Made by a program: the position numbers and the translations under genes
Shown: positions 5,701 through 20,746 of the stretch, piece after piece
How the letters are laid out: every line of letters starts with the position of its first letter
Position numbering within the stretch: position 1 is the stretch's first letter
Assembly: GCA_963812605.1 (NCBI GenBank)
Contig: CAWEWF010000014.1
Location: 736,001 to 800,000, forward strand
Length of the DNA: 64,000 bases
DNA from: an uncultured Verrucomicrobiae bacterium
Lineage (GTDB): Bacteria; Verrucomicrobiota; Verrucomicrobiia; Palsa-1439
Direction of reading: 5' to 3'
Notes under the pieces: generated by a model
Database searches by the model: none
What the model saw: only the letters and a program-made list of their open reading frames with translations
Told to the model about the DNA's origin: nothing

Positions 5701-6479
5701 TGTCGGCCGCCAGGAAGGAATTAAAGTCCGTACTCCAGTTGCAAAAGGAGCGCTTGTACGAAGCCATGTGCACGCAACGGAGTTGGCCGTTCCACGAGTG
5801 GGAGACCTATCTCAACCGCCATTCCATTGCCGGCCGGTATTGCCAGGGTCTCGTGTGGACCGCGTTCCGTAATGACCAGGCGGCATCGACATTTCGGCCG
5901 CTGGCCGACGGCAGCCTGACCGATTGCGAGGATAATGCGGTCAGCGTCGAGCCAAATGCGGTCATCCGGTTGGCGCATGACTGCAATACAACGGAAGCCT
6001 TGCGACGCGGTTGGCGGCAGCATTTCTCCGACTACAATGTTGCCCCACTTTTCGAACAGTTTGACAAGCAGGGTTACACGCTATCGGAGGAAAACAAGGG
6101 GGAAACAACCATCACCGGCTTCGAGGGCCATCTTGTGGAGGCTTTCAAACTCCGCGGTCGCGCTACCAAACTCGGTTACACGCGCGGTCAAGCCCAGGAT
6201 GGCGGGTGGTTTTTCGAGTACAAAAAGAACTTTCCCAGCCTTGGCTTGGAAGCGATCGTTGAATTCACCGGTAACGGCCTGCCCGAGGAGAACCGTACCG
6301 TGGCACTGCGCAACCTGCGATTTGAGCGGCGCGCCACCGGTGAGTCCACCGAATCCGAAGGTGTTCCGCTAGGTGAGATTCCGCCGGTATTGCTGAGCGA
6401 ATGTTGGAACGATCTGCGCCTGGCTGCCGCTGAAGGGACTGGATTCGACCCCGATTGGGAAAAGAAAACCGCTTACTGA
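2727..6479 (+). CDS. HEAT-repeat and DUF4132 domain protein (YehI/MolR-like)
   Basis: HEAT-like repeats (RAVAAEWLGRL...AIPHLQAAL); C-terminal ELADRTIPTAGFD...ERLYEAMCTQRSW...PLFEQF typical of DUF4132; operon context. Confidence 0.8.
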   Translation: MLEWLKAQFGGHDFQNRAGLTSPHLNLLVDDLRQLDTVRAGLSGRATRYVLDHEGAEVLLELGGLKGCGTALDLSCCARFGLSKNKNQSRQQLLGTTEYSDAHFYLRLAKVYEAAARREQNHFLFPTLSGGAEWMEILLREATMPKPNTWPRKHLPPALPIDVFEAMLVADDRPADLLMRAAFLPDLKHNYSLHLSGLFTCLKGFAENVLKHPQVVIETMNQKDFNLRVHALHLLSKYQVPSEIFAGQIVELAVSQSKQVREAAEVVLNRIPETAVPLIEKMTIEGTNEQRALAVRRLWATQGETCRSFLESRIERDSSKKVAQIIRDLLTVPATTAVTAQEPAIELPPLPPVKVRAPLGDEARAVLINCYEEANHEAKQAHARHVATSKGQHKAAPPWLVTRSNLDQGFELLECMTCSKIQIQPILRLPAWSSGLKGIKTFLARPEVELIHCTRLLILMGIIHPWDENQRRILSWNYDQLLNHYRRHHRPPFGMRELAAVFKAIGLDDTVIGWAKVDASYRPVMQWETDAIWPYFAERVNLLQEAFQNVSTGERFEDYLRRDRRINAFEILAMFPQLPPVFLPMLWEVALGSSKTERPLAQQCLDKLPGKEEKIVNALASGQQETRAVAAEWLGRLKTPEAIPHLQAALKKEKSEVAKGAMMGALEAMGVPIEQFLDRASLVKEAQKGLAKGVPPGLSWVPFQLLPAAHWEDTGAPVPAEVLTWFIVQGYKLKSAEPNPLLRRYCSYFRKHEREALGQFILQSWIAQDTLPAHTHEEAAQLAEQQANRSLSFWTQYAQRHAKLNPTQPVAQAPTKDDLYRQFLNGLLSKCKASAIDQKGVLALAGACCGAPAVPVVKRYLKEWYGIRGAQCKALIQMLAWVEHPAAIQLLLSVGNRFRTKGIREEAEKYVQLLAERKGWTRDELADRTIPTAGFDEEGKLEIDYGARKFFATLGPEFELVLTNEEGKAITSLPEPRQDEDVAKVKEAKQKLSAARKELKSVLQLQKERLYEAMCTQRSWPFHEWETYLNRHSIAGRYCQGLVWTAFRNDQAASTFRPLADGSLTDCEDNAVSVEPNAVIRLAHDCNTTEALRRGWRQHFSDYNVAPLFEQFDKQGYTLSEENKGETTITGFEGHLVEAFKLRGRATKLGYTRGQAQDGGWFFEYKKNFPSLGLEAIVEFTGNGLPEENRTVALRNLRFERRATGESTESEGVPLGEIPPVLLSECWNDLRLAAAEGTGFDPDWEKKTAY

Positions 6480-6487
6480 CTCGATCT

Positions 6488-7588
6488 ATGACATCCGCTA
6501 CCACGCCAAACATCGTACGCCAACCAGCCGAAGTTCAATTCGCTGCGGAACTTGCGGCGCTGGCCACGCAAGATGCCGGGCCGAAACCGCCGGGTTGGAA
6601 GCTGTCGCCGCAATCGGTGCGCAAGTTTATTCTCGGTTCCGGCACGGACATCCGAAGAAAATTCTACGGCGATGACGCGTTGATCGATCGCTGCATCGTC
6701 ACGCTGATCGGCAATCGCGGTCTCATGCTGGTCGGCGAACCCGGAACGGCCAAGTCGATGCTCTCCGAATTGCTTGCGGCTGCCATATCGGGCGACTCCA
6801 CCAACACGATTCAGGGTACGGCTGGTACGACGGAGGACCAGATCAAGTATTCGTGGAACTATGCCCTGCTGCTCGCGGAAGGCCCCAGCGAGCGCGCCCT
6901 GGTGCCGTCGCCACTTTACATCGGCATGAAACAGGGCGCTGTAGTGCGGTTTGAGGAGATTACCCGGTGCCAGCCGGAGATTCAGGATTCGATGGTTAGC
7001 ATCCTGTCGGACAAAATCATGCACATCGCGGAGCTTGGCAATGACCATTCGGTGATGTTCGCCGCGAAAGGCTTCAACGTCCTTGCCACCGCCAACATTC
7101 GTGACCGCGGCGTGCACGAGATGTCCAGCGCTCTGAAACGGCGTTTTAACTTCGAGACCGTCAACCCGATTGCGGACAAGTCGCTGGAATTGCAGTTGGT
7201 GAAGGAACAAGCCGAGATGTTGCTGACAGAAGCCCAGGTCAGCGTCGAATGCTCGCTCGACGTGATTGATCTGTTGGTGACGACGTTCCACGATCTTCGC
7301 CAGGGACAAACGGAGGAAGGCACGGTTGTGGACCGTCCTTCCACTGTCATGTCCACGGCGGAAGCCGTCGCCGTGGGTTTTTCCGCGGGCCTGGACGCGT
7401 ACTATTTTGGTAACGGCAAGCTCCAGAGCGAACACATTGCTCGTCAACTCGTCGGGACGGTTCTCAAGGACAACCCCGAGGACGCCAAGAAGTTGAAGCA
7501 CTACTTCGACGTGGTGGTCAAGGCGCGCTCGAAAAAGAACAAGGCCTGGAGCGCGTACTTCGAGGCTCGCAAGTGGTTGACCGGCTGA
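6488..7588 (+). CDS. MoxR-type AAA+ ATPase (YehL-like)
   Basis: Walker A GEPGTAKS, Walker B region RFEEITRC, ATANIRDRGVHEMSSALKRRF. Confidence 0.88.
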   Translation: MTSATTPNIVRQPAEVQFAAELAALATQDAGPKPPGWKLSPQSVRKFILGSGTDIRRKFYGDDALIDRCIVTLIGNRGLMLVGEPGTAKSMLSELLAAAISGDSTNTIQGTAGTTEDQIKYSWNYALLLAEGPSERALVPSPLYIGMKQGAVVRFEEITRCQPEIQDSMVSILSDKIMHIAELGNDHSVMFAAKGFNVLATANIRDRGVHEMSSALKRRFNFETVNPIADKSLELQLVKEQAEMLLTEAQVSVECSLDVIDLLVTTFHDLRQGQTEEGTVVDRPSTVMSTAEAVAVGFSAGLDAYYFGNGKLQSEHIARQLVGTVLKDNPEDAKKLKHYFDVVVKARSKKNKAWSAYFEARKWLTG

Positions 7589-7593
7589 ACCGC

Positions 7594-10051
7594 ATGTCCT
7601 ACGCACCGGAACTCGAACGCCTCCTTGGTCAGCTCATTAGCGGCGATATCCTGTTCTTTCCGATCCGGCACCATAGTCCGGCCTGTGCCTGGCATCTGCA
7701 GCGGCTAATCGAGCAGTACCGGCGAACGTCGATCCTGGTGGAAGGCCCGGCCAACTTTACTCCGCTTATCCCGTTGATCTTACATCCGCGTACCCGCACT
7801 CCGTTTGCGGTCTACACTACTTACGTGGACACAACCCGTCGCGTCAACAAAAGCCTGGCTAAGGAGCGTGGTGATTTCGGTCCGGCGCGCTTTGCGGCCT
7901 ACTACCCCTTCTGTAACTATTCGCCGGAGTTGGTCGCCTTGCGCTCGGGAATAGCGGCGGGCGCGCGTCTGCAGTTCATCGATCTGGATTATCCTCGCCA
8001 GGTTCTCTCCGAGAAGCCAGCGGATGACCTTCCCGCAGCGCCCCGGGTCGATTCGTTGCTGGAGGAGCGCCATCTCAAACGCAGCGCGTATTTGAAACAA
8101 TTGGCCAAGCGGACCGGCTGTCGGGACCAGGACGAGTTGTGGGACCACTTGTTCGAGGTGAACTATGCCGAGGTTTCGACCGAGACTTTTGTAAAGAACG
8201 TCGCCGCCTACTGCTACATGGCGCGCCACGACTACCTGCCGGACGAACTGGCTGCCGATGGAACACGGGCGCGCGAACAATCAATGGCCAAAGCCATCCG
8301 GGAGGAACGGGCGGCGGGCCGCAGCGGAAACATCCTCGTTGTGACCGGTGGGTTTCACACCGTGGTGCTGCCTGATATGCTTCACAGTGAAACTGACGAG
8401 CAGAAGTTGCCGATACCCGACGGCGAGAGCATTTCGCCGGTACTGATCCGCTACAGCTTTGACCAACTCGATTCGCTGAACGGTTACGCCGCCGGCATGC
8501 CATCCCCGCACTATTACGATCAGTTCTGGGATCGGGCGATCGAAGGCCAGCCGCGCCCGTTCCTGGAAACCGCCGCGAACCTGCTTGTCGAGATCGGCCG
8601 GCTGACACGGGAGAAGTCATTGCCGAACGCGCTGTCCACCGCTGATGAAATCGCAGCCCTGGAGCAGGCGCGGCGCCTGGCGCTCTTGCGCGGTCACGTG
8701 GGCCCGACCCGCGAAGATCTGTTGGATGGCGTGCGCAGTTGTTTCGTCAAGGGTTCGATGGATGCCGAAGGCGCGGTCTTGATGGGGATCGCGCGGCACG
8801 TTCTCTCCGGCACGGCCATCGGCGATATTCCTCCCGAAGCCGGTGCGCCACCGTTGGTGGAGAACTTCCGCGCGGTGGCCATCGAACTGCGTCTCAACAT
8901 TACCGAGTCCGTGCGCCGCAAGCTCTCGCTGGACATCTACCGGAGCGTCGCACACCGGACAATCAGCCGCTTCTTCCATAGTTTGAGTTTTCTTCAAGCG
9001 CCCTTTGCGGCCCTGGTCGCCGGGCCGAACTTCGTGCAGGGCACGGGACTGCAGCGCCTCCAGGAACACTGGGATTACTTCTGGAGTCCACGCACGGAGA
9101 GTGCCCTGGTCGAAGCCTCGGTGTATGGTTCGACGGTTGAAGAGGCTGCCGCCAACCGACTGCGACAGGACGTCATCAATTTGGAGCAACAGGGCCGCGG
9201 CCGTAGCGCCCTGGAAGCGGTCAGGATGCTGGTCATGGCGTGCCGGATGGGGCTGCATCGGCATACGAAGCAGTTGCTCGATCTCATCGCCGGCAATGTC
9301 GTGGAGGATTCCTCTTTCGTGTCCGTCGTGCAGGCAATGAACCAGCTTTTGTTGCTGTGGCAGTCGCGCGAGCCGTTGGAAGCGCATCATCTGCCGGAGA
9401 TTCCATCCCTGTTGCGCATCGCCTACGAACGCGCGTGTTATCTCGTGCGCGGCCTTGCCAGTTCTCCGCAGGAAGAAATCTACAGCGTCCTCCAAGCCTT
9501 CAACACCATTCGCGAAGCGCTGGCCGCCGTGAAAGACGATCTTCTGGACGCGGACCTCTTCTGGCAGGAAGTGGCCGCGCTGCCCGCTATCCGCCCGGCC
9601 AATTCGGCGGTAGTGGGTGGCGCCGCCGGGCTCGTTATACGGCGACAACCGCCTTAGCGAGAAGATGTTGCTCGAAATGATGCTCGGTCATTTGGATGCA
9701 GCAACCTCCGACAACCGATCAAAGGTCGGATTCGTCATCGGGCTGCTGCGAACGTGCCGGGAGGTGGCCTGGCAACAACACGCGTTGCTCGAAGCCATCG
9801 ACCAACTTCTTGCCTCGTGGGACGAGCACGAGTTCATTCGTCTTTTGCCGGAGCTGCGGATTGCGTTCGCCGGCCTCACACCGCGTGAGACCGACCGCGT
9901 GGCCGGTGCCGTTGCCGGGCTACACGGGCAAAAGGATCTCGGTGAGTTGATTCATTACGACATCAACCAGGCCGCTTTGTCCTTTCATCTGAACGTCACG
10001 CAGGAAGTGCTGCGCAGTCTGGAGCACGATCAATTGGCTGACTGGGCATGA
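7594..10051 (+). CDS. DUF5682/YehM-like protein, split by a frameshift near 9640
   Basis: IRHHSPACA, LVEGP, VTGGFH and GYAAGMPSP motifs; C-terminal part continues in ORF 9617-10051. Confidence 0.8.
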
Positions 10052-11178
10052 GTGTGATCTCCTCCAATCCGTTGAGCCGGTGGCGGCTGGTGCTGGGCAA
10101 GTATGCCGCCGATCGCCTGCCGTCCGGGCTCTCGGAGACGGAACAACGCATCGAGACCGCTCTCGATTATCTGTACTCACGCGAGTATCGGGGCCGCGGG
10201 ATGCGCGAAAAGGAAAAGGAGCCGGGCTCACTGGATGCCTCCCAGTTGAATATCCCCGCCTGGCTCGCCGAAGTACGGGAACTTTTTCCGAAAGAGACCG
10301 TGGAAGTCATCGAGAAACACGCGCTCGACCGTTATGGCATGACGGAATTGGTCACCGACCGGGAGGTCCTGAAAAAGCTCCAGCCAAATCTCGATTTACT
10401 CAAGGCCATCCTCACGTTCCGCGGGCATATGAAAGAAGACGTACTCGCCGAAGCGCGGCGGCTGGTGCGGCACGTTGTCGAGGAGATCAAACTGAAAATG
10501 GAACCGGAAGTTCGACGGGCTTTGGCCGGCAAGCTCAATCGATTTCGGCATTCCAATCTCAAGGTTGCGCAGAATTTCGACTGGCGCGGCTCGCTGCGAA
10601 AGAACCTCAAGAATTATGACCCGATCCGGCAGAAGATCATAGTGCAGGACGTGCAATTCTTCTCGCGCAACGAACGCCGGCTGCCCTGGCACATTATCCT
10701 GTGCATCGATCAGAGCGGCAGCATGGCCAGTTCGGTCATCCACAGCGCCGTGATGGCGGGTATTCTGACGAGTCTGCCCATGCTACGGGTGAAACTGGTC
10801 GTGTTCGACACTTCGATCGTCGATCTCAGCGAGCATGTGGACGATTCGGTGGAAGTTCTGATGAACGTACAACTCGGTGGCGGCACGGACATCGGGCAGG
10901 CGCTGACCTATTGCGAAGGTTTGGTCGAGAACCCCAAACGCACGGTCGTGGTGTTGGTCAGCGACTTCGCCGAAGGCGCATCGCCGGCGCGGCTGCTGGA
11001 TACATGCCGACGCTTGCGCGAGGCCGGCGTCATCCTGTTGGGACTGGCTGCGCTCGACGAACAAGCCAACGCGTCCTACGACGTGAAGATGGCCGAACGG
11101 CTGGCTGAAATCGGCATGGAAATCGCCGCACTGACCCCGAAACGATTGGCCCAATGGCTGGCGAAAGTCATATCCTAG
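10048..11178 (+). CDS. VWA domain protein (YehP/CoxE-like)
   Basis: RWRLVLG N-terminus, MIDAS motif DQSGSM, LGGGTDI, VLVSDFAEG. Confidence 0.88.
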   Translation: MSVISSNPLSRWRLVLGKYAADRLPSGLSETEQRIETALDYLYSREYRGRGMREKEKEPGSLDASQLNIPAWLAEVRELFPKETVEVIEKHALDRYGMTELVTDREVLKKLQPNLDLLKAILTFRGHMKEDVLAEARRLVRHVVEEIKLKMEPEVRRALAGKLNRFRHSNLKVAQNFDWRGSLRKNLKNYDPIRQKIIVQDVQFFSRNERRLPWHIILCIDQSGSMASSVIHSAVMAGILTSLPMLRVKLVVFDTSIVDLSEHVDDSVEVLMNVQLGGGTDIGQALTYCEGLVENPKRTVVVLVSDFAEGASPARLLDTCRRLREAGVILLGLAALDEQANASYDVKMAERLAEIGMEIAALTPKRLAQWLAKVIS

Positions 11179-13257
11179 GCAAACTGCAAACGCTGCTGGT
11201 GTCGTTCGATGACAGAGCGTTTGAAGCGTTGGCGAGCCGTGGGCTGTTGCGACGCGCGCAGAAGGATTTGGAGGGCGGCGTTCCTGTCGAGATTACCGGC
11301 GATGTGCCCGCTGGTCTTGCGGTCAAGGTTGCCAATTTCACTGTTACACTTCCCGAAGCTGGTCCCGCGAAAGCCAAATGCACGTGTCGTTCCCCGGGCA
11401 TCTGTCAGCATATTCTGATGGCCTGCCTGTTTCTCCAACGCACCGCTGCACTCCCCAAGCAAGCTGACCTCCTGACAGTGGAAGCGACTACTACCGGACG
11501 CGGGCGCGATGAACTGTTGGCATTCACCGCCGAGCAACTCGGGCAATGGGCTAGCAAGCCGGCATTGCGGGCGGCGTTCGCATTGCTCGCGGCGCAACCA
11601 CCAATCCAGATGGAAACCAAAGGCGCGATCATTGTCCGTTTCCCTGATCACGGTGCGGAGTGCCGCTATGTTGCCGGTGGCGGATTGGATGGAATGGTTG
11701 TGACCGCACCGCAGGGTGCTTCCATGAAGTTTGCCGTGGCAGCGGTGTTGGCGTTTCAGCAGTCCCAGGGCCTCAAGCTACCCGAAGCCGCAACGGCGGC
11801 ACCTGCCCTGGCGGAAACCCGGGGCGCACCACGCACGCGAGATGAAGTCCTCGGTACCAGCCGTCAACTCCTTGAAGAGTCTGTGTGCGTCGGTCTTTCC
11901 CACCTCTCGATCTCATTTGAGCAGCGGTTTGCCACGCTGGCGGTTTCCGCGTTGGGAGTCAATCTTCCTCGATTGTCACTGGCGCTGCGCGGAATTGGCG
12001 ACGAGATTTCGCTGATCGTCAAGCGCGACGCGCAGGCTGATGAAGCGCGCCTGCTGCAATCAGTGTCACGCGCCCACGCACTTTGTCATGCTTTGCGTAC
12101 AACCATTCCCCCGCCACGAGCCGACTTGATCGGGTGGCATCGCACCCAATATGAGGAGGTCGGCCATTTGGAACTACACGGTGTCGCCGCCTACCCGTGG
12201 CGGACAAGTTCTGGTTACGAAGGATTAACGGTTCTATTTTGGGAGAACACAGCCTGCCCGGTGGTACTCGTGGTCGGAAGCCCGACCACGCCACCAAGCC
12301 GGCAGTTTCAATCCCCGCGACCGCTACAAACAAGAAAGTCCATGGCAGGGCGCGACCAGTCCTGACCAGCTTTCGCGCTCGAGCTTCAAGCTCATGCATG
12401 CGCGACGGAATCCCCTGGGCCGATTGTCTGCTTCTGCGAAGAGCCGAGCGTTGATCGTTGGCCCGACATCGCCCGTGACGCTCAACTTTGGCAATAAAAT
12501 CTTCTCGCACTGGAGTTCTCTCCAGCAGTACGCGTGCGAACTCTCGCCTATCGGTCTCGGGGAGTTCAATCCACTCGAGGAGATTGTGGTCTTGCAACCG
12601 GCAAACTGGGGCCGGCGACATTTCGATCAGGTTTCACAGACTTTCACCTGGGCCATCCTCGACGAAGACGGTGACGCGCTGACCCTGGAAGTGCGGTTTA
12701 ACGACCTGAACGACATCACCATCAAGTTTCTTGAGAATCTCAATCCCCGCACTCCGCGCGTGAGCGCGTTAATCGCCAAAATCTCGCGTACCGGCCTGAC
12801 AATCGCTGCGCAACCGATTTCGTTGGTCATGCCGGATGCGACGGGCACGGCGATTCTGAATCTTGGATTCGATGCCGCGCCCCGCCAGACGGTCCTGGCA
12901 AAGATAAAAGACCTGGTAAACACCATGGCTGACGAAGAGCCTCTGCTGGCTGATGAAGAGGGCGAGGCAGAGGAGTTCGTTCTTCTGGGTTCCAGCTTCG
13001 ATCAGCTCGTCACCAATCTGGAATCATTGCTTCAGAAGATCGCGGAACGCGGCTGCCGAACTCTTACTACGGTAGCCAGCCATGAACTGAGCGCGACCGC
13101 CGCAAACATGGAAGCCGCAGGGTTCAACATTCTTTCAAAAGCCATCCATCACTTGATCGGCAACACAAAGTGGCCAGCGCCGGATCTGCTCCAACTTCGC
13201 TACCTCTGCCTCGTTCATCGTCAGGCCGGTCAGCGAGTTGCTGCGCGCAGGACATGA
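11154..13257 (+). CDS. SWIM zinc-finger protein (YehQ-like), frameshifted near 12260
   Basis: CTCRSPGICQH SWIM motif; coding continues into ORF 12394-13257; start codon uncertain. Confidence 0.72.
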
Positions 13258-13373
13258 TTTGTCCATCGCATCTGACTGACAAACCAGATGCGGGTACAAG
13301 AAAAAAACTTTCTTGAATGTGTTGAGAAGGTAGAGGTTACACCGGTCTTTTCAATGTCGTGAACAAAAAGTTG

Positions 13374-13402
13374 TTGACGAATGACCCTTGGGAAGTTAGC
13401 TT
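13374..13402 (+). promoter_or_regulatory. Putative sigma70 promoter of the tRNA/RNA-repair locus
   Basis: TTGACG (13374-79), 17-nt spacer, TAGCTT (13397-402), A-tract upstream. Confidence 0.6.
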
Positions 13403-13424
13403 ACGCAAGTTTTTGAGGACAGAC

Positions 13425-13568
13425 ATGCGAACGCTAAGACCACAACGTAAATGCGCGACAGCGAGGATGCTTATATCCTCGTTGACCCGTAGTGGTCTGT
13501 TCCCGTCCTTTGTGTCATTAGGCCATTACGTCGCCAAAGATAACACGGGAGGGCCGGGAAGCAGGTAG
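13425..13568 (+). CDS. Putative 47-aa leader peptide (attenuator uORF)
   Basis: GAGGA Shine-Dalgarno at 13415-19; MRTLRPQRKC...GGPGSR*; last codons are complementary to the terminator 5' arm. Confidence 0.6.
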   Translation: MRTLRPQRKCATARMLISSLTRSGLFPSFVSLGHYVAKDNTGGPGSR

Positions 13569-13591
13569 TTGTCACGTCCAGATGTTCCGTG

Positions 13592-13624
13592 AACCCTGCT
13601 TCCGAAAGGAACGCAGGGTTTTTT
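13592..13624 (+). terminator. Intrinsic terminator (attenuator)
   Basis: AACCCTGC-TTCC-GAAA-GGAA-C-GCAGGGTT followed by a T tract. Confidence 0.85.
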
Positions 13625-13687
13625 ATTGTCGCTATGCCGAAAAACGAAAGGAATCACAGTTAAAATGAAGATTTAAGGTGAAAAGAA

Positions 13688-14049
13688 TGCCGCGCCACCA
13701 GCGTCAACTGGCAGCGCGGCGGGATCGGTCACTACAACAGGACTCTTGTGAGGGCCACTGAGGAGCAACCTTGTACAAGGTTAGCCTCCTTGGTGCGAAG
13801 GTGTCAAGGGCTCGCCCTTTGCCCGCCGAACTGTCCTGCCGGAGTTGAACGTTTCCCACACCAATCAATAACAACGCCAAGGGCTTCATGGGAGGTGTGC
13901 CCGAAACACCAAAACGTTCCACCGAGAAATCCCGTGGCCACGCCAGCGTCAGGCTGGTGTGAAGGTGTTCGTTCTTTGTTGTGATCAGGGCAGGAACACA
14001 GGGCAACCAATCGAGTGCCGCATGAGGCGGCATTGTGTTCCTGCCCCCA
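13688..14049 (+). ncRNA. Unassigned large structured RNA heading the tRNA array
   Basis: Nested helices: 13689-13720 hairpin; 13727-43 pairs with 13971-86; internal hairpins; terminal 13-bp stem followed by CCA; no convincing ORF. Confidence 0.6.
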
Positions 14050-14057
14050 TTTTCCGG

Positions 14058-14131
14058 GCGCTTGTGGTTTAGCAGCAGAACACCGCGTTGCCAACGCGGA
14101 GGTGCGGGTGCGACTCCCGCCGAGCGCTCCA
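14058..14131 (+). tRNA. tRNA-Gly(GCC)
   Basis: Cloverleaf, acceptor GCGCTTG/CGAGCGC, U73, CCA encoded, T loop TGCGACT. Confidence 0.88.
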
Positions 14132-14142
14132 ATTCCAGTGCT

Positions 14143-14216
14143 ACGGCGTGCGCCAGTTCGCGCAGTTGAGTCTCCAAAACTCGGCGTGGTTGGGGCGGCA
14201 CCAACACGCCGTGCCA
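14143..14216 (+). tRNA. tRNA-Trp(CCA), degenerate D arm
   Basis: Acceptor ACGGCGT/ACGCCGT, G73, anticodon loop CTCCAAA, T loop GGCGGCA, CCA. Confidence 0.75.
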
Positions 14217-14220
14217 GTTT

Positions 14221-14296
14221 GGGGACACATGTGCCGTAGCGGCGAGACTGCCTTGCAAGCAGTTTGTGGTGGGTGCAACTCCCACTGTCTCCACCA
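14221..14296 (+). tRNA. tRNA-Ala(TGC)
   Basis: GGGGACA/TGTCTCC with G3:U70, A73, anticodon loop CTTGCAA, CCA. Confidence 0.85.
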
Positions 14297-14308
14297 GTTC
14301 GGACCCGC

Positions 14309-14399
14309 GGGTGATGTTCCGGTCAACGGTCTGTAGAACCGTGGTCGCTAAAACAAGGTCGGAAGACGACGAGTGGAGCGTTACCACCATCACCCACCA
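14309..14399 (+). tRNA. tRNA-Tyr(GTA)-like, no D arm, enlarged variable arm
   Basis: GGGTGAT/ATCACCC, A73, CCA; anticodon arm ACGGT-CTGTAGA-ACCGT; T loop AGCGTTA. Confidence 0.7.
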
Positions 14400-14406
14400 G
14401 TTTCAC

Positions 14407-14482
14407 GACTCGGAAGAGGAACAGCAGACTCGCCTGCCTGTCTAGCGGGAGATAACGGGGGCAGCACCCGTCCGGATCGCCA
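14407..14482 (+). tRNA. tRNA-Asp(GTC)
   Basis: CCTGC-CTGTCTA-GCGGG, G73, T loop GGCAGCA, CCA. Confidence 0.8.
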
Positions 14483-14487
14483 TTTCG

Positions 14488-14562
14488 CGGGCACGAGGAA
14501 GATAGCAATCCGCCCGGTTTGGAACCGGGAGACACTCGGGGCAGAACCGAGGTGCCCGACCA
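14488..14562 (+). tRNA. tRNA-Pro(TGG)
   Basis: CGGGCAC/GTGCCCG, A73, CCCGG-TTTGGAA-CCGGG, CCA. Confidence 0.87.
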
Positions 14563-14569
14563 ATTTCCA

Positions 14570-14645
14570 CTCCCCGTAGTTCAGATTATAGAATGCCGAG
14601 CTTCTAACTCGGAGGTCGCAGGTGCGAGTCCTGCCGGGGAGACCA
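14570..14645 (+). tRNA. tRNA-Arg(TCT)
   Basis: CTCCCCG/CGGGGAG, CCGAG-CTTCTAA-CTCGG, CCA. Confidence 0.88.
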
Positions 14646-14653
14646 GTTTTGAT

Positions 14654-14728
14654 TCCATCGTGGGATAACAGTAGTCCACCGTCCTGTTAAGGCGAGAGGT
14701 CGTGGTGCGAATCCACGCGATGGAGCCA
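14654..14728 (+). tRNA. tRNA-Asn(GTT)
   Basis: TCCATCG/CGATGGA, G73, anticodon loop CTGTTAA, CCA. Confidence 0.87.
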
Positions 14729-14729
14729 G

Positions 14730-14821
14730 GGAGTCCAGGCCGATACAAGCTGGCGGCACTCGTCTTGAAAACGAGATCTGGCGCAAGCCAGAGGCGGGAG
14801 CATTACCTGCGGACTCCGCCA
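14730..14821 (+). tRNA. tRNA-Ser(TGA)
   Basis: GGAGTCC/GGACTCC, G73, long variable arm TCTGGC-GCAA-GCCAGA, CCA. Confidence 0.88.
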
Positions 14822-14853
14822 ATTCAGAAACAACAACCGAAGGAGATAAGGCC

Positions 14854-15033
14854 ATGTACACCACCAAGACAGAAACGGTCGCTCGGATCCCCATCCAACG
14901 CTGGCGAAATACGCGCTTTGTCGTACCGGTGCGGGAAACGCGACGCCATCGGTCGCTGGCAATACCGGATCCGCCACACCGGAAGAGGACGCGTCGCGGA
15001 TCATTCACCGAAACTGACGCGCGCGCCCCATAA
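14854..15033 (+). CDS. Small Arg-rich protein (59 aa) inside the tRNA array
   Basis: AAGGAG Shine-Dalgarno at 14840-45; MYTTKTETVARIPIQRWRNTRFVVPVRETRRHRSLAIPDPPHRKRTRRGSFTETDARAP*; too short for the ORF track. Confidence 0.5.
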   Translation: MYTTKTETVARIPIQRWRNTRFVVPVRETRRHRSLAIPDPPHRKRTRRGSFTETDARAP

Positions 15034-15075
15034 CGCGCATTGTTTACCATGCCTGTCGCAAACGATGCGCCCTTC

Positions 15076-15149
15076 CCTTCCGTAGCTCAAGAGCAGAGCG
15101 GTCGGCTGATAACCGACAGATCACGGAGCGTTACCGTGCGGAAGGACCA
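15076..15149 (+). tRNA. tRNA-Ile(GAT)
   Basis: CCTTCCG/CGGAAGG, GTCGG-CTGATAA-CCGAC, T loop AGCGTTA, CCA. Confidence 0.87.
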
Positions 15150-15151
15150 AC

Positions 15152-15226
15152 GGCTCGGAAGCTCTCGGAGGAGAGCGTCCCGCTGAAAACGGGAAAGGGG
15201 CGGTGCAACTCCGTCGCGAGCCACCA
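15152..15226 (+). tRNA. tRNA-Phe(GAA)
   Basis: TCCCG-CTGAAAA-CGGGA, A73, CCA. Confidence 0.86.
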
Positions 15227-15235
15227 CTTTGTTTT

Positions 15236-15309
15236 GTTCTCGAAGTGTAAGAGATCTGCACGTCCCGTTGCGAACGGGAAGGTTCGGGGTGCGAATCCCT
15301 GCGAGAACA
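15236..15309 (+). tRNA. tRNA-Arg(GCG)
   Basis: GTTCTCG/CGAGAAC, TCCCG-TTGCGAA-CGGGA; CCA not encoded. Confidence 0.83.
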
Positions 15310-15338
15310 CTTTACCCCGAATTCTTTCGGGCCAGTTT

Positions 15339-15415
15339 GCCTCTGTGGCCGAGACTGTCCAGGCACGGCTTTCGTAAAGCCGACCACATCGGTGCAATTC
15401 CGATCGGAGGCCCCA
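15339..15415 (+). tRNA. tRNA-Thr(CGT)
   Basis: GCCTCTG/CGGAGGC, CGGCT-TTCGTAA-AGCCG, CCA. Confidence 0.85.
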
Positions 15416-15422
15416 GTTTGCT

Positions 15423-15497
15423 GGTGACCGTGGTGTAAGAGCAGCACCGCAGACCGTGAATCTGCAGGAGCGGGTGTAAGTCCCGTCGGTCGCCCCA
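15423..15497 (+). tRNA. tRNA-His(GTG)
   Basis: G-1:C73 pair, GCAGA-CCGTGAA-TCTGC, CCA. Confidence 0.87.
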
Positions 15498-15505
15498 ATT
15501 CGTTC

Positions 15506-15578
15506 GTCCCGCGAGGGAGCCAGTGAACCCGCCTGTCTGCAAAACAAGCACTGTGCGGTGCGACACCGCAGCGGGACT
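15506..15578 (+). tRNA. tRNA-Cys(GCA)
   Basis: GTCCCGC/GCGGGAC, U73, anticodon loop CTGCAAA; followed by TCA. Confidence 0.8.
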
Positions 15579-15588
15579 TCAATTTCAT

Positions 15589-15663
15589 GCCTCCAAAGAA
15601 TAGACAGCGATTCGCGTCATCGGTAATGACGACAGCACAGTGCGATTCTGTGTGGAGGCTCCA
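15589..15663 (+). tRNA. tRNA-Thr(GGT)
   Basis: GCCTCCA/TGGAGGC, CGTCA-TCGGTAA-TGACG, CCA. Confidence 0.85.
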
Positions 15664-15670
15664 ATTCGAT

Positions 15671-15749
15671 GCGGCAGTGATGTTGAACAGAATGAGCATG
15701 GCTGCCTTCCAAGCAGCTCGTGTGGGTGCGACTCCCATCTGCCGCACCA
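15671..15749 (+). tRNA. tRNA-Gly(TCC)
   Basis: GCGGCAG/CTGCCGC, GCTGC-CTTCCAA-GCAGC, CCA. Confidence 0.86.
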
Positions 15750-15755
15750 CTTCGA

Positions 15756-15829
15756 CGCGGGTGAGTAGCGTGGCACTACAGGAGGCTCATACCCTCCAGA
15801 CGCCGGTTCAATTCCGGCACCCGCTACCA
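15756..15829 (+). tRNA. Initiator-like tRNA-Met(CAT)
   Basis: C1/U72 mismatch, GGAGG-CTCATAC-CCTCC; the only array tRNA with a canonical TTC T loop, paired with a GG D loop. Confidence 0.82.
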
Positions 15830-15836
15830 ATTTTCT

Positions 15837-15911
15837 CGCTCCGTAGCACAAACGCAGTGCGCCGGTTTCATACGCCGGAGATTGCCAGTGCGAACCTGGC
15901 CGGAGCGACCA
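15837..15911 (+). tRNA. Elongator tRNA with CAT anticodon (Met; Ile2 not excluded)
   Basis: CGCTCCG/CGGAGCG, CCGGT-TTCATAC-GCCGG, CCA. Confidence 0.8.
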
Positions 15912-15915
15912 GTTC

Positions 15916-15990
15916 GGGTCGCAAGCATTGCAAGCGATGCAGCGGATTCTTACTCCGCAGAACACGGGGCGGTACCGTGGCGGCCCACCA
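15916..15990 (+). tRNA. tRNA-Lys(CTT)
   Basis: GGGTCGC/GCGGCCC, GCGGA-TTCTTAC-TCCGC, T loop GGCGGTA, CCA. Confidence 0.84.
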
Positions 15991-15998
15991 ATCCATTC

Positions 15999-16073
15999 GC
16001 CTGCGTGGCCGAAAAGTCAGGCACCGGTTTTGTAAACCGACCCATGCAGGTGCGACTCCTGCCGCAGGCTCCA
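15999..16073 (+). tRNA. tRNA-Thr(TGT)
   Basis: GCCTGCG/CGCAGGC, anticodon loop TTTGTAA, CCA. Confidence 0.86.
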
Positions 16074-16079
16074 ATTGAT

Positions 16080-16154
16080 TGCCTCGTGGTGTAACCAGCG
16101 GCACATCCGTCTCTGAAACGGAAAGTCCGGGTGCAATTCCAGGCGAGGCAGCCA
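16080..16154 (+). tRNA. tRNA-Gln(CTG)
   Basis: U1:A72, G73, TCCGT-CTCTGAA-ACGGA, CCA. Confidence 0.87.
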
Positions 16155-16161
16155 TCGTCAC

Positions 16162-16236
16162 GCCGCACTAGCCCAATGCAGAGGCACCAGTCTTAGAAAC
16201 TGGACAGTCCTGGTGCAAATCCAGGGTGCGGTACCA
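16162..16236 (+). tRNA. tRNA-Leu(TAG), short variable loop
   Basis: CCAGT-CTTAGAA-ACTGG, 5-nt variable loop, A73, CCA. Confidence 0.85.
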
Positions 16237-16240
16237 ATTC

Positions 16241-16316
16241 GCTCCCGTAGCTCAAAGTATAGAGCGCCCGGCTTCGAACCGGGAGGTTGCAGGTGAGATT
16301 CCTCCCGGGAGCACCA
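16241..16316 (+). tRNA. tRNA-Arg(TCG)
   Basis: GCTCCCG/CGGGAGC, CCCGG-CTTCGAA-CCGGG, T loop TGAGATT, CCA. Confidence 0.86.
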
Positions 16317-16325
16317 ACGTCCGAA

Positions 16326-16397
16326 GCTCGTGTAGCCCAACGCAGAGGCAGTCGGCTTAAACCCGATCCAGTGCCGGTGCAATCCCGGCCACGAGCA
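16326..16397 (+). tRNA. tRNA-Leu(TAA), short variable loop
   Basis: GCTCGTG/CACGAGC, GTCGG-CTTAAAC-CCGAT; followed by CCG. Confidence 0.84.
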
Positions 16398-16402
16398 CCG
16401 AT

Positions 16403-16478
16403 ACCGACGTAGCCCAACAGCAGAGGCACCAAGCTCAAACCTTGGCCAGTGTGGGTGCGACTCCCTCCGTCGGTACCA
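16403..16478 (+). tRNA. tRNA-Leu(CAA), short variable loop
   Basis: ACCGACG/CGTCGGT, CCAAG-CTCAAAC-CTTGG, CCA. Confidence 0.85.
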
Positions 16479-16484
16479 ATTCAC

Positions 16485-16577
16485 GGAGCATGAACCGGGC
16501 AAGCGAACCGGGACTGTTTGCTAAACAGATCGACCCGCATCCAGCGGATTGAGGCGCAAGCCCTCCGTGCTCCGCCA
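16485..16577 (+). tRNA. tRNA-Ser(GCT)
   Basis: GGAGCAT/GTGCTCC, G73, anticodon loop TTGCTAA, long variable arm, CCA. Confidence 0.82.
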
Positions 16578-16587
16578 GTTCCTTCTC

Positions 16588-16676
16588 CCGCCCGTAGTTC
16601 AAAGAGAACCGTCCGCCTTATAAGCGGAATCGCACTGGATGAGTGCCAGGCCTCGGAGCGTTACCGAGCGGGCGGA
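16588..16676 (+). tRNA. tRNA with TAT anticodon (Ile UAU) and a long variable arm
   Basis: CCGCCCG/CGGGCGG, TCCGC-CTTATAA-GCGGA, variable arm GCACT-GGATG-AGTGC; no CCA. Confidence 0.8.
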
Positions 16677-16677
16677 T

Positions 16678-16755
16678 GGCCGTGATCGCGAAGCAGCTCC
16701 AGCGACCTGTCTTTCAAGCAGGATCCAGCGGGTGCGAGACCCGCCACGGCTGCCA
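16678..16755 (+). tRNA. tRNA-Glu(TTC)
   Basis: GGCCGTG/CACGGCT, G73, CCTGT-CTTTCAA-GCAGG, CCA. Confidence 0.85.
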
Positions 16756-16757
16756 AC

Positions 16758-16834
16758 GGACTCGAAGCCACAGCAGACCGGCACCGGACTTTTAATCCGG
16801 CAGGGTGAGGTTGCAACTACCTCCGGGTCCACCA
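16758..16834 (+). tRNA. tRNA-Lys(TTT)
   Basis: GGACTCG/CGGGTCC, CCGGA-CTTTTAA-TCCGG, CCA. Confidence 0.86.
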
Positions 16835-16860
16835 ATTTCGCTCGTATTGCCCAATGCGTT

Positions 16861-16934
16861 TGCCGAGTCGTCCAATAGTAGGACATCTCGCTTTGAACGA
16901 GAAGATCGTGGTGCGAATCCACGCTCGGCAGCCA
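16861..16934 (+). tRNA. tRNA-Gln(TTG)
   Basis: TGCCGAG/CTCGGCA, G73, TCTCG-CTTTGAA-CGAGA, CCA. Confidence 0.88.
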
Positions 16935-16939
16935 ATTCC

Positions 16940-17013
16940 CGCCCGATGGTGAAATAGGATCACGCCTGGCTTACATCCAGGAATCCGGGGAGCATAACCT
17001 CGTCGGGCGACCA
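16940..17013 (+). tRNA. tRNA-Val(TAC)
   Basis: CGCCCGA/TCGGGCG, CCTGG-CTTACAT-CCAGG, T loop AGCATAA, CCA. Confidence 0.86.
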
Positions 17014-17498: not shown

Positions 17499-18931
17499 AT
17501 GAGATTCAACCTGCTCAAGAGACGCCGCACGGGCGCCGATACCGTCAACTTCGCTGGAGGCGAGGCGTTCACGGAATCCCCAAAGCTGGAACTGGCGGCG
17601 CTAATGTTGACCGCGACACTGCAGAACGACTTTTATCGTTCCGCCAACGCCACTGCTACGCGCTTGAAGGAACTCATCGGCAAGATCGACGACAAGAAGT
17701 TTGTCGCCAAGACTGCGCTCTACGCCCGCAACAAGGCGGGGATGCGTTCGGTTTCACATCTGACTGCCGGTGAGTTGGCCCGCACCGTGAAGGGGCAGCC
17801 GTGGACTGCGAAGTTCTACGAACAAGTGGTCCGCCGCCCGGATGACGCGTTGGAAATCCTCGCGTACTACCTGGCGATGCACGGTCGGCCCATCCCAAAC
17901 GCGTTGAAGAAGGGCCTGGGCGCTGCCTTGGCGCGTTTCGACGAGTACCAGTTGGCCAAGTATCGCAAGAGCGCTGCGGAAATCTCGCTCGTGGACGCGG
18001 TAAACCTCGTTCACCCGAGACACACCGAGGCATTGAAGAAGCTGGTCAACGGCACTCTCGCGCCGGCAGAAACCTGGGAAACCAGACTGACGGAGGCGGG
18101 TGCGGCGGCGGAGTCGGAAGACGAACTCGCCGAGTTGAAGAAGGACGTGTGGACGAAGCTGATCGAGAGTCGCAAGCTCGGTTACTTCGCGCTGTTGCGC
18201 AACCTGCGCAACATTCTCCAAGCCGCGCCTGAGTCAATGGATGCGGCCATCACAATGTTGACGGATGAGAGGCTCATCCGGCGCTCGTTGGTGCTGCCAT
18301 TCCGTTATCCTCACGGCGCTCGAAGCAATGCAGGCGACTAAGCCTGCCGAATGTCAGCAAGGTACTCGTTGCTCTCAGCGAGGCGGTGGACAAGTCTCTT
18401 GTTAACGTGCCGCAGTTCGATGGCAAGACGCTGGTTGCGCTGGATGGCTCTGGTTCGATGCAGGGGCGTCCCCTGAAGATCGGCTCGCTGTTTGCCGCAA
18501 CGCTGGCGAAGGCCAACGATGCGGACGTAATGCTGTTCAGTAACGACGCGAAGTATGTCTCCCTGAACCACCGTGACAGCACGTTGACGCTGGCGCAGTG
18601 GCTGGAGAGCCAGGCCCAGTCGGCGGGAACCGACTTCCATTGCATCTTCCAGACGGCGAAGCGCGGTTATGATCGCGTGATCATCCTGTCGGATATGCAG
18701 GGTTGGATCGGTCACTACGCTCCGACCAAGACCTATGAGGCGTACAGGAGACAGTTCGGGGTTGACCCGAAGGTTTTCTCGTTCGATCTCAAGGGTTACG
18801 GCACGTTGATGTTCCCCGAACGCAGCATCTATTGTTTGGCCGGCTTCTCCGACAAGACAATGGACATGCTGAAGTTCCTCGACTCGGATAAGTCCGCATT
18901 GCTTCGAGAAATCGAGGCCGTCGAGTTGTAA
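17499..18931 (+). CDS. rsr: Ro60/Rsr TROVE-domain RNA-binding protein with C-terminal VWA; two apparent 1-nt insertions near 18309 and 18340
   Basis: VNFAGGEAF, YARNKAGMRS, FDEYQLAKY, ETWET, YFALLRNLRN, LPFRY, DGSGSM, GTDF, IILSDMQ. Confidence 0.88.
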
Positions 18932-19307: not shown

Positions 19308-19380
19308 ACAAACCCGGTGGAGGAGTAGCTTGAAGGCGTGCTCCTCCATCCCATTGAATGATAGGAAAGGAAACACCAAC

Positions 19381-20550
19381 ATGAAGCCAGTAATCTTCGG
19401 TCAGCATGACGAGGCGACGATCCGGCAGATCGAAACCTGCCTGGCGGCGGGCGGCGAAAAGGCCGTGCTGTGCGCGGATGGCCACAAGGGCTACGCCCAA
19501 CCAATCGGCGGCGTGGTCGCCTACAAGGACAAGGTGTCGATCTCGGGTGTCGGTTTCGACATCGCCTGCGGCAACCTTGCCATCCGCACCGACGCCATGG
19601 AAGCCGACATCCAGCCAAAGATGGACGCGATCATGGACGACGTGGTGCGCCACATCTCGTTCGGCGTCGGCCGCACGAACAAGAACAGGGTTGACCATGA
19701 ACTGTTCGACGACGAAGCGTGGAACATTCGCGCGATTGGCCAACTGAAGCACCTGGCGCAGGAGCAGCTCGGCACGGTCGGCAGCGGCAACCATTATGTG
19801 GATGTCTTTGCCGATGAGGGTGGCGTGGTCTGGGTCGGCGTGCACTTCGGTTCGCGCGGGCTCGGTCACCGGTCGGCGACGCACTTCCTGAAGGTTGCGG
19901 GTGGAAAGGACGGCATGGATGTACCACCTACCGTTCTCGATCTGCGGGTTCAGGTCGGTCAGGATTACCTCGCGGCGATGAGGCTGGGCGGTCGTTACGC
20001 CTACGCCGGCCGCGAGTACGTCGCCCGTTTCGTCGTGCGTGAGATTCTCCAGGCGAACATCGTGGAAGAAGTTCACAACCACCACAACTTCGCCTGGGAA
20101 GAAGAACACTACGGCGAAAAGTTCTGGGTCGTGCGCAAGGGCGCTACGCCGGCGTTTCCCGGTCAAAAGGGATTCGTCGGCGGCAGCATGGGCGACGACG
20201 CCGTAATCATCGAGGGCATTGACACGGCAAGATCGCGCGAGGCCTTGTTCTCGACCGTCCACGGCGCTGGACGCGTCATGTCGCGCACGGCAGCCAAGGG
20301 CAAGTTCGAGAACGTCGGCGGAAAGCGTATCCGCCAACCCGGGCGAATCCGTCATGATGAAATGATGGCCTGGCTCAAGAACAAGGGCGTCGTCCTGCGA
20401 GGTGGCGACCTTGACGAAGCGCCCCAGGCCTATCGTCGCCTGACGGATGTACTCGCGGCACAGGGTCGCACGATTCGCGTTCTCCATACGCTCCGCCCGC
20501 TGGGCGTGGCCATGGCCGGACGAAACATCGTCGATCCCTACAAGGACTGA
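19381..20550 (+). CDS. rtcB: RtcB RNA ligase
   Basis: ADGHKGY, GFDIACG, GTVGSGNHY, HFGSRGLG, HNHHNFAW, VVRKGATPA, GGSMG, STVHGAGR, DEAPQAY. Confidence 0.95.
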   Translation: MKPVIFGQHDEATIRQIETCLAAGGEKAVLCADGHKGYAQPIGGVVAYKDKVSISGVGFDIACGNLAIRTDAMEADIQPKMDAIMDDVVRHISFGVGRTNKNRVDHELFDDEAWNIRAIGQLKHLAQEQLGTVGSGNHYVDVFADEGGVVWVGVHFGSRGLGHRSATHFLKVAGGKDGMDVPPTVLDLRVQVGQDYLAAMRLGGRYAYAGREYVARFVVREILQANIVEEVHNHHNFAWEEEHYGEKFWVVRKGATPAFPGQKGFVGGSMGDDAVIIEGIDTARSREALFSTVHGAGRVMSRTAAKGKFENVGGKRIRQPGRIRHDEMMAWLKNKGVVLRGGDLDEAPQAYRRLTDVLAAQGRTIRVLHTLRPLGVAMAGRNIVDPYKD

Positions 20551-20617
20551 AGGCAAGCTGCCCGCGGTTGGAGCGATGTCAGCCACATCCTGTGCATTGT
20601 TCCAACCTCCCCTTTTC

Positions 20618-20692
20618 GCTCCCATAGCTCAACAGACAGAGCCTTCCTCTCCTAAGGGAAAGATTTGGGTGCAACTCCTGATGGGAGCACCA
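20618..20692 (+). tRNA. tRNA-Arg(CCT), array type (T loop TGCAACT)
   Basis: GCTCCCA/TGGGAGC, TTCCT-CTCCTAA-GGGAA, CCA. Confidence 0.86.
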
Positions 20693-20746
20693 TTTATTTG
20701 GCGATCACAACAAATAGCGAACACCATCGAGGAACAGAGGAATGAT

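Follow-up and report, generated by a model that had tools for sequence, protein, structure and literature searches.

A compact leader on the plus strand of a 64,000-nucleotide (nt) stretch of DNA from an uncultured Verrucomicrobiae bacterium (GenBank assembly GCA_963812605.1, contig CAWEWF010000014.1, positions 736,001–800,000) appears to be a ribosome-dependent, leader-peptide transcription attenuator controlling an array of spare transfer RNA (tRNA) genes and the RNA-repair genes behind it. We give this reading a probability of about 0.65. The window, as the term is used here, is that whole stretch at its full length, and all coordinates are counted from its first letter. To judge from its relatives, this regulatory element is real, conserved and widespread, and it represents a new family; its parts, their arrangement, their conservation and their covariation can all be read from a comparison of sequences, and from these we infer which way the switch would work and to what signal it would respond. 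An attenuator at this place had been proposed in a first-pass annotation made from the letters of the window, which saw in it a possible general sensor of translation failure.

Architecture of the Leader

The leader begins with a sigma-70-type promoter (13374–13402, plus strand) in which a −35 box, TTGACG (13374–13379), and a −10 box, TAGCTT (13397–13402), are separated by a spacer of 17 nt. This promoter recurs in 11 of 11 close relatives, where the TTGAC and the TA of the −10 box are invariant, and most of the 21 leaders known from genomes have a TTGAC(G/A)-type −35 box followed about 17 nt on by a TAnnnn box that lies 15–30 nt 5′ of the ATG. A Shine-Dalgarno sequence, GAGGA (13415–13419), stands 5 nt 5′ of the ATG at 13425, and genus-level relatives have a purine-rich GAGGA, AAGGA or GGAGA at the same position. 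The open reading frame (ORF) that follows (13425–13568) comprises 47 sense codons, for the peptide MRTLRPQRKCATARMLISSLTRSGLFPSFVSLGHYVAKDNTGGPGSR, and then a TAG (13566–13568). The first-pass annotation had described exactly such a 47-codon upstream ORF with a GAGGA before it and a TAG at its end, and this can be read directly off the sequence, as can its remark that the peptide has no run of a single amino acid: identical residues never run to more than two, and a codon run of the amino acid operon type is absent.

The last three sense codons of the ORF constitute the strand GGAAGCAGG (13557–13565), which the stop codon directly abuts. Beyond the stop codon there is first a noncoding box, TGTCACGTCCA (13570–13580), and then an intrinsic terminator (13594–13624) composed of the 5′ arm CCCTGCTTCC (13594–13603), a GAAA loop, the 3′ arm GGAACGCAGGG (13608–13618), which can be written GGAA(C)GCAGGG with C13612 bulged, and a tract of six T (13619–13624). 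The terminator hairpin has a folding energy of −15.8 kcal/mol and is also present in the folds of a larger region, and its outer stem, CCCTGC/GCAGGG, is invariant together with the T tract in 21 of 21 leaders. Within the 5′ arm sits CCTGCTTCC (13595–13603), the perfect complement of GGAAGCAGG, so that the complementarity between the segment before the stop codon and the terminator on which the first-pass annotation had built its proposal is indeed there in the sequence.

A Family of Leaders in the Verrucomicrobiae

Of 41 related genomes, 11 proved to carry the element when searched at the DNA level. Eleven copies went into a covariance model, which gave full-length matches in 11 of 45 genomes when the family was searched, in 12 of 47 for the order and, in a sampled search of the class, in 12 of 151, nine of which were new and came from other families. 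A sampled search of the phylum (151 genomes) returned no true full-length match and one additional false positive (L054), which consists of the C-terminus of a protein followed by a terminator. In total, 21 Verrucomicrobiae genomes carry the full-length leader, and the public records of the carriers are those of metagenome-assembled genomes of uncultured Verrucomicrobia, Verrucomicrobiae or Verrucomicrobiia. When metagenome contigs were scanned with a pattern, at least 120 further stretches with the element came to light, and of these the metagenome analyses reported below rest on 80 loci (79 distinct).

Some candidates were set aside. A match to the terminator pattern in Marinomonas (L030) has the same terminator after an unrelated gene, without a leader, and two of the metagenome loci (L061 and L074) lack an ORF, differ in the arm and are apparently unrelated. 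Three others (L060, L084 and L127) have family-like strands without an ATG-initiated ORF of at least 35 codons. A blastn comparison with phage records gave no match. Against Rfam 15, which includes the T-box and the known leaders, the tRNAs alone matched at the gathering scores, and when the limit was relaxed to an E-value of 1 the region 13250–14100 gave two matches at the level of chance, ctRNA_pGA1 (21.5 bits) and an Aggregatibacter small RNA (19.4 bits).

Covariation of the Prestop Segment and the Terminator Arm

In the 194-nt leader of the window the best duplex available to the terminator arm is the one with the GGAAGCAGG segment (−16.5 kcal/mol), which was matched in only 2 of 500 shuffled leaders, and across the family 19 of 21 sequences have the prestop segment as the arm's best partner anywhere in the leader. 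On alignment A4 the antiterminator helix is paired in 95.1% of 144 cells, as against 37–57% in slid controls, and 3 of its 8 pairs have changed on both sides (10 cells). Its covariation score of 0.281 compares with 0.161 in the shuffles and was reached by none of 500. The variants are matched to one another, prestop segment with arm, as GGAAGCAGG with CCTGCTTCC, GAGGCAGG with CCTGCCTC, GTAAGCAGG with CCTGCTTAC, GGCAGGCAGG with CCTGCTTGCC, GAGCAGG with CCTGCTC and CCGGGCGGG with CCTGCCCGG. In three leaders (L039–L041) a T-to-C change in the arm has been compensated in the antiterminator and not in the terminator's own 3′ arm.

The metagenome leaders tell the same story at the five antiterminator positions that the search pattern left free, where 337 of 355 cells are paired; slid controls pair in 17–41%, and when the arms were dealt among the sequences the observed value was reached in 0 of 1000 trials. 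These comparisons argue that a helix which excludes the terminator is kept by selection. Covariation in orthologous leaders was the test by which the first-pass annotation had, beforehand, allowed itself to be refuted, and in distant relatives the prestop segment and the arm are found to change together.

A Reading Frame That Is Kept, a Peptide That Is Not

In 20 of the 21 genomes the frame of the leader is kept as an ATG-initiated ORF of 39–56 codons whose insertions and deletions are in frame, and these 20 leaders together contain no stop codon in frame versus 34 and 34 in the other two frames. Among the 76 metagenome loci that have enough upstream DNA, 72 are open for at least 35 codons in the leader frame versus 10 and 9 in the others, and 71 have an ATG-initiated ORF of at least 35 codons, the commonest length being 56 codons. 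The end of the frame is kept as well: TAG, TAA or TGA is at the stop position in 20 of 21 leaders, the stop codon adjoins the antiterminator strand in 19 of 21 (by the duplex test), and the distance from the stop codon to the terminator arm is 23–29 nt in the genome leaders, 22–29 nt in 71 metagenome leaders and 25 nt in the window.

The encoded peptide has fared quite differently. Differences between the leaders are distributed over the codon positions as 428/444/453, with a median ratio of nonsynonymous to synonymous change (dN/dS) of 0.72 over 33 pairs, and in the metagenome class of 56 codons they are distributed as 21531/25143/26961. Peptides from different families can barely be aligned, and the peptide of the window has no match in Pfam or NCBIfam. 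Such a pattern suggests a leader that is translated, and whose peptide evolves almost neutrally.

The Genes Behind the Leader

Whatever lies downstream of the leader lies on its strand throughout. In the window the terminator is followed by a spacer of 432 nt (13626–14057), by a tRNA array (14058–17010) in which ARAGORN recognizes 17 tRNAs and Rfam 3 more, by a Ro60-like protein in two ORFs (TROVE, 17499–18341, and vWA_Ro60, 18386–18928, both by Pfam) and by the RNA ligase RtcB (19330–20550, by Pfam), all on the plus strand, and their strand and order suggest that the array, the Ro60-like gene and RtcB are co-transcribed. The genome has 65 tRNAs in total, of which 18 are here, and because all but 3 of the anticodons of the array occur elsewhere in the genome we regard the array as a set of spare copies.

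Same-strand tRNA arrays are found within 1.5 kb of the leader in 11 of the 21 genomes. In 5 others the leader is followed, about 90 nt 3′ of the terminator, by an MsbA/HlyB-like ATP-binding cassette (ABC) half-transporter (637–648 amino acids), and in one more (G001) this exporter is split; the leaders that head an exporter belong to one genus and come from sister genomes. Behind the leader in three genomes (L039–L041) there is a protein of 267–272 amino acids with no match in Pfam or NCBIfam, and in the last there is nothing within 1 kb. Downstream sequence extends for 500 nt or more in 50 metagenome loci, of which 35 have same-strand tRNAs within 3 kb and none has tRNAs on the opposite strand. 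The split exporter of G001, which is broken into residues 1–218 and 232–464+, is the only one of its kind, and it stands behind the only frameshifted leader among the 21 (L008 and L021). The locus may be decaying, or it may be poorly assembled; since the frameshifted leader and the split exporter coincide, it fits the attenuator reading.

So compact a unit of promoter, ORF and terminator might also be taken for a free-standing small gene or small RNA, the product being either the 47-residue peptide or an RNA of about 215 nt, with the genes behind it served by a promoter of their own. Such a gene would be suited by the terminator, which is the stable fold of the full-length transcript in 17 of 21 leaders, by the peptide consensus of the 56-codon class, and by the case of Sinorhizobium, in which leader peptides and terminated attenuator RNAs reportedly can have effects in trans. 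It would, however, explain neither the covariation of the prestop segment with the terminator arm nor the constancy of the same-strand cargo; moreover, the peptide is nearly neutral in its evolution, and both peptide and RNA are without a match to a known family. We consider a free-standing gene very improbable, and return to the attenuator.

Alternative Folds and the Proposed Switch

The attenuator, as we picture it, would work in the following manner. Transcription would begin near 13410, and a ribosome would load at once onto the 47-codon ORF. When translation keeps pace with the polymerase, this ribosome would come to rest at the stop codon with GGAAGCAGG covered by its peptidyl and exit sites and its messenger RNA channel; the 5′ arm of the terminator, which starts 25 nt past the stop, would be outside the ribosome and free to pair with its own 3′ arm, and transcription would end at 13619–13624. 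When the ribosome is late, stalled in the ORF or absent, the naked GGAAGCAGG would instead pair with CCTGCTTCC as it emerges, the terminator would be blocked, and the polymerase would read through into the spacer RNA, the approximately 20 tRNA genes, the Ro60-like gene and RtcB.

Predicted folds are largely in keeping with this scheme. For a 236-nt region, none of 200 shuffles attains so stable a fold (z = −3.48). When the transcript is taken up to the terminator loop, its minimum-energy fold holds the antiterminator in 20 of 21 leaders; when it is taken at full length, the terminator is favored in 17 of 21, and in the window the energies are −83.8 kcal/mol with the terminator versus −75.2 kcal/mol with the antiterminator forced. 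The choice between the two would thus be a kinetic one, since the partial transcript favors the antiterminator and the full-length transcript the terminator, and it would fall to whatever covers GGAAGCAGG as the terminator loop emerges. Folding of the alternative structures had been called for in the first-pass annotation, and it yields a terminator and an antiterminator that are mutually exclusive and that both form. Of what that annotation predicted, everything open to computation has been borne out.

Other helices are formed inside the ORF. A hairpin at 13459–13484 (core CGAGGAT/ATCCTCG, plus strand) is present both in the minimum-energy fold and in the RNAalifold consensus, which retains 6 of its pairs, one of them with changes on both sides in 4 sequences, and it might serve as a pause hairpin for RNA polymerase. 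A second stem (13481–13535, plus strand), formed by GTAGTGGTCTG with TAGGCCATTAC and their flanks, belongs to the RNAalifold consensus of 11 sequences and has compensatory changes at several pairs, for example at pair 96:148 (AU 4, UA 3, GU 2). The first-pass annotation had drawn a further hairpin between 13501–13512 and 13535–13550. The complementarity exists, but the minimum-energy fold adopts another register, in which 13501–13505 pairs with 13555–13559, and as a conserved part of the leader this hairpin does not hold up: 68% of its cells are paired in the relatives, a value reached by 24 of 500 shuffles. Between the stop codon and the terminator, the box TGTCACGTCCA is nearly invariant in 10 genus-level relatives and is not kept in distant ones; the minimum-energy fold joins it to the Shine-Dalgarno and start region (13417–13425), and it might in this way close the leader to later ribosomes.

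Traces of the RNA itself are slight. Small parts of the stretch are represented in nine metatranscriptomes, and the four examined yield 1–3 low-depth contigs each, which carry no information on RNA ends, strand or level and leave 13300–13511 uncovered. One 283-nt contig of an RNA library, derived from a relative (20 letters differ), spans 13512–13789 across the terminator, and because RNA libraries can hold DNA it is at most a weak hint of read-through.

Several observations weigh against the reading just given. As regards the pairing, the arm finds its best partner elsewhere than in the prestop segment in 2 of the 21 leaders (L022 and L042); the pattern used on the metagenome contigs was designed in such a way that five antiterminator pairs and the stop codon's position were given beforehand; and the sequences compared are related, so that the shuffle counts overstate their independence. 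As regards the folds, that of the full-length terminator is the more stable, so that read-through rests on kinetics; for array-type leaders of the genus, the energy gained when the antiterminator forms is no more than −2.6 to −5.8 kcal/mol; many nascent folds sequester the antiterminator strand upstream (5–7 of its 9 nt in most genus-level leaders); and no anti-antiterminator of conserved register was found in the relatives, where 76% of its cells are paired, no better than in the shuffles. A Shine-Dalgarno sequence is not evident in three distant leaders among the 21 (L044, L047 and L049). The 56-codon metagenome class has a loose, recognizable peptide consensus, and some role for the sequence of the peptide is therefore possible. 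Finally, there may be a second promoter inside the 432-nt spacer. A simple consensus scan cannot speak to this last point because it missed the leader's own promoter; the terminator at 13594–13624 is likewise not among the 6 sites that it scored.

The sequestering folds are also what would be expected of a switch with three states, of the trp or bmrB kind, in which the antiterminator is freed solely by a ribosome stalled in the ORF and an untranslated leader terminates in the same way as a fully translated one. With the arm blocked, it is precisely those 5–7 of 9 antiterminator bases that pair upstream in most genus-level leaders, and the minimum-energy fold of the window engages 13555–13559 with 13501–13505. 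The bmrB leader shows a lower and noninducible read-through when it is not translated (PMC4191407), and this too must be counted against our reading. On the other hand, no sequestering helix of fixed register is conserved, the 76% mentioned above being no better than chance shuffles and the helix of 13501–13512 with 13535–13550 being paired in only 68% of cells, and the fold of the partial transcript still picks the antiterminator in 20 of 21 leaders. On this balance a three-state switch seems to us unlikely, and we continue to prefer the attenuator in which an absent ribosome, like a stalled one, would permit read-through.

What the Leader Would Sense

In the classical attenuators it is a particular codon that matters, and a multivalent version of these can be imagined here, in which the leader would monitor the tRNAs carried by the array or those that serve rare codons. 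The leader of the window does have 7 codons that are rare in its genome (CTA, AGA, AGG twice, ATA, TTA and TCA), and tRNAs that read several of these are present in the array (Leu-TAG, Arg-TCT, Arg-CCT, Ile-TAT and Leu-TAA). Within the genus, furthermore, the array-type leaders have 7–8 rare codons versus 0–3 in the exporter-type leaders, whose other frames have 4–10. This contrast separates two subclades, though, and so amounts to about one event at most. Nor are codons readable by the array enriched: they make up 20 of 46 in frame versus 20 of 42 and 16 of 42 off frame, and their share was reached by 591 of 2000 shuffles (two loci tested). Rare codons over 20 leaders number 101 in frame versus 126 and 115 off frame, and the very same family of leaders heads an ABC exporter. 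A codon-specific sensor is, in our judgment, distinctly unlikely.

The signal would most likely be the overall progress of the first ribosome, which may be slowed by antibiotics, by damaged or scarce tRNAs or by starvation, and not one amino acid, because there is neither a codon run nor any matching of leader codons to the array. The absence of codon matching, the lack of enrichment of rare codons and the alternative exporter cargo all favor a general sensor of ribosome progress, and since tRNAs in some genomes and an ABC exporter in others stand under this one leader, the sensor would be a portable one. The general sensing of translation failure that the first-pass annotation had suggested would be consistent with these findings.

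A more speculative extension, which we put forward tentatively and think less probable than its contrary, is that the leader stands guard over the tRNA pool and responds when it is damaged. The first ribosome would be slowed at any of some 47 mixed codons by anticodon nucleases (in phage defense, from toxins or from competitors), by antibiotics or by starvation; this would call forth replacement tRNAs together with Ro60-like and RtcB repair, and the response would be turned off when decoding recovers. Attenuator, structured spacer RNA, array and repair genes would then make up a single mobile "translation rescue" cassette, widespread in soil Verrucomicrobia, whose sensor would have been re-used for an exporter of drugs or peptides.

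Spacer, Array and Surroundings

The spacer that separates the first tRNA from the attenuator is itself conserved in 7 array-type loci, two of them from other families, and RNAalifold gives it a multihelix structure of 70 pairs, 27 of which have compensatory changes. It may be an undescribed structured RNA that heads tRNA arrays, with the Ro60-like gene downstream. On the minus strand of the spacer, at 13689–13720, a GC-rich hairpin of 14 base pairs is followed by a T-rich run, an arrangement that resembles a terminator for antisense transcription and that is conserved with compensatory changes in the relatives.

The three tRNA-like genes that Rfam detects (37–48 bits) and ARAGORN does not (15152–15223, 15424–15494 and 16940–17010) may be unusual or degenerate tRNAs. 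Beyond the array there is a tRNA-Arg(CCT) (20618–20692, plus strand). The division of the Ro60-like gene into two ORFs could be due either to a frameshift or stop or to an error of assembly. If an HNH endonuclease ORF (20447–21334, plus strand) is taken to begin at its first start codon, it runs over the end of RtcB and encloses the tRNA-Arg(CCT); its true start is probably further downstream. HNH endonucleases follow arrays in three loci, being array-terminal in L031 and L034 too. In the close relative L031 the array is followed by a calcineurin-like phosphoesterase (5564–6238) and by a release-factor-like protein of 166 amino acids with a PCRF domain (6614–7111), which by their domains could be further cargo of the translation and RNA-repair type. 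The array of another genome (G025; L036 593–667 and L034 5773–5847) includes a tRNA with the amber-reading anticodon CTA, called tRNA-Pyl by ARAGORN; the leader of that genome stops in TAA, those of the window's genus in TAG.

Upstream of the leader, similarity between loci starts at its promoter, and the genes further out vary with the locus (HipA, ankyrin or DUF5672). In the window they are a plus-strand set (2727–12365) of DUF4132/HEAT, MoxR-type AAA, DUF5682, VWA/CoxE and SWIM zinc finger proteins, with DUF5682 in two ORFs (7573–9657 and 9617–10051), followed by a protein of 287 amino acids that matches nothing in Pfam or NCBIfam. Because relatives have other genes there, this set is not part of the element. 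The leader promoter is flanked by a 10-nt inverted repeat, CAAAAAGTTG and CAAGTTTTTG (13364–13373 and 13406–13415, 90% complementary), which could be an operator.

Comparison with Known Attenuators and tRNA Arrays

The trpL, hisL and pheL leaders of Escherichia coli are leader-peptide attenuators of amino acid operons. The verrucomicrobial leader resembles them in having a short ORF and an antiterminator that shares a strand with the terminator, and in that a ribosome at the stop codon would mask the antiterminator and bring about termination. It differs from them in that it has no run of regulatory codons, that its ORF is 39–56 codons long, that its stop codon abuts the pairing strand, that no conserved helix of the 1:2 type was found in it and that its cargo is made up of tRNAs and RNA-repair genes instead of biosynthetic enzymes.

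Closer to it in several respects is the bmrB leader of the bmrCD genes of Bacillus subtilis, a multidrug ABC transporter controlled by ribosome-mediated attenuation which responds to impaired translation in general (PMC4191407). As described there, bmrB is likewise a long leader ORF (53 codons) without amino acid runs, with alternative stem-loops and an intrinsic terminator. The terminator of bmrB is placed inside the coding region, and here it lies past the stop codon; bmrB also requires translation for read-through. Cargo of the bmrB type, for efflux or resistance, is not in the window, which has tRNAs, but it is in the 5 sister genomes and the 1 split copy, and the likeness to antibiotic-responsive attenuators that the first-pass annotation had remarked upon is strengthened by finding the same leader at the head of an ABC exporter. 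The toiL leader of topAI-yjhQ in E. coli is a multipurpose upstream ORF that senses many translation stresses through the position of the ribosome (PMC12121999); it works by occlusion of a ribosome-binding site and by Rho-dependent termination, and here there is an intrinsic terminator/antiterminator pair. Since it has a long ORF and no regulatory codons, we place the leader nearest to the bmrB-type attenuators and, in its logic, to toiL.

The purpose and the control of long arrays of spare tRNAs are largely open questions, and the case that has been studied, that of Anabaena, involves a repressor and translation stress. In that work, the long tRNA array and rtcB of the trn operon of Anabaena sp. 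PCC 7120 are induced by translation stress, and the Verrucomicrobia are listed among the phyla with long tRNA arrays (PMC8421152). The two systems have in common a long supernumerary array that is linked to rtcB, and the induction seen in Anabaena suits the attenuator reading. In Anabaena the repressor TrcR exerts control at direct repeats that cover the −10 box and the transcription start (PMC8421152, PMC10272220); the promoter described here has no such repeats (0 families of direct repeats in 13300–13430), and it is the ribosome on the nascent RNA that would do the sensing directly. The terms "attenuat*," "leader" and "terminator" are absent from the texts of these two papers, and a search of the literature, with supplements outside its scope, found no published link of leader peptides or attenuation to tRNA arrays or operons.

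If our reading is true, an attenuator run by the ribosome would be independent evidence that such arrays are modules of the response to translation stress, and it would provide a direct feedback from decoding to the transcription of tRNA genes, of which we found no instance in print. The element is compact, about 250 nt, and the predictions it makes for mutations are clear. Set beside trpL, bmrB, toiL and the trn operon, it is a known kind of switch put to a new use, in the service of tRNA arrays and RNA repair.

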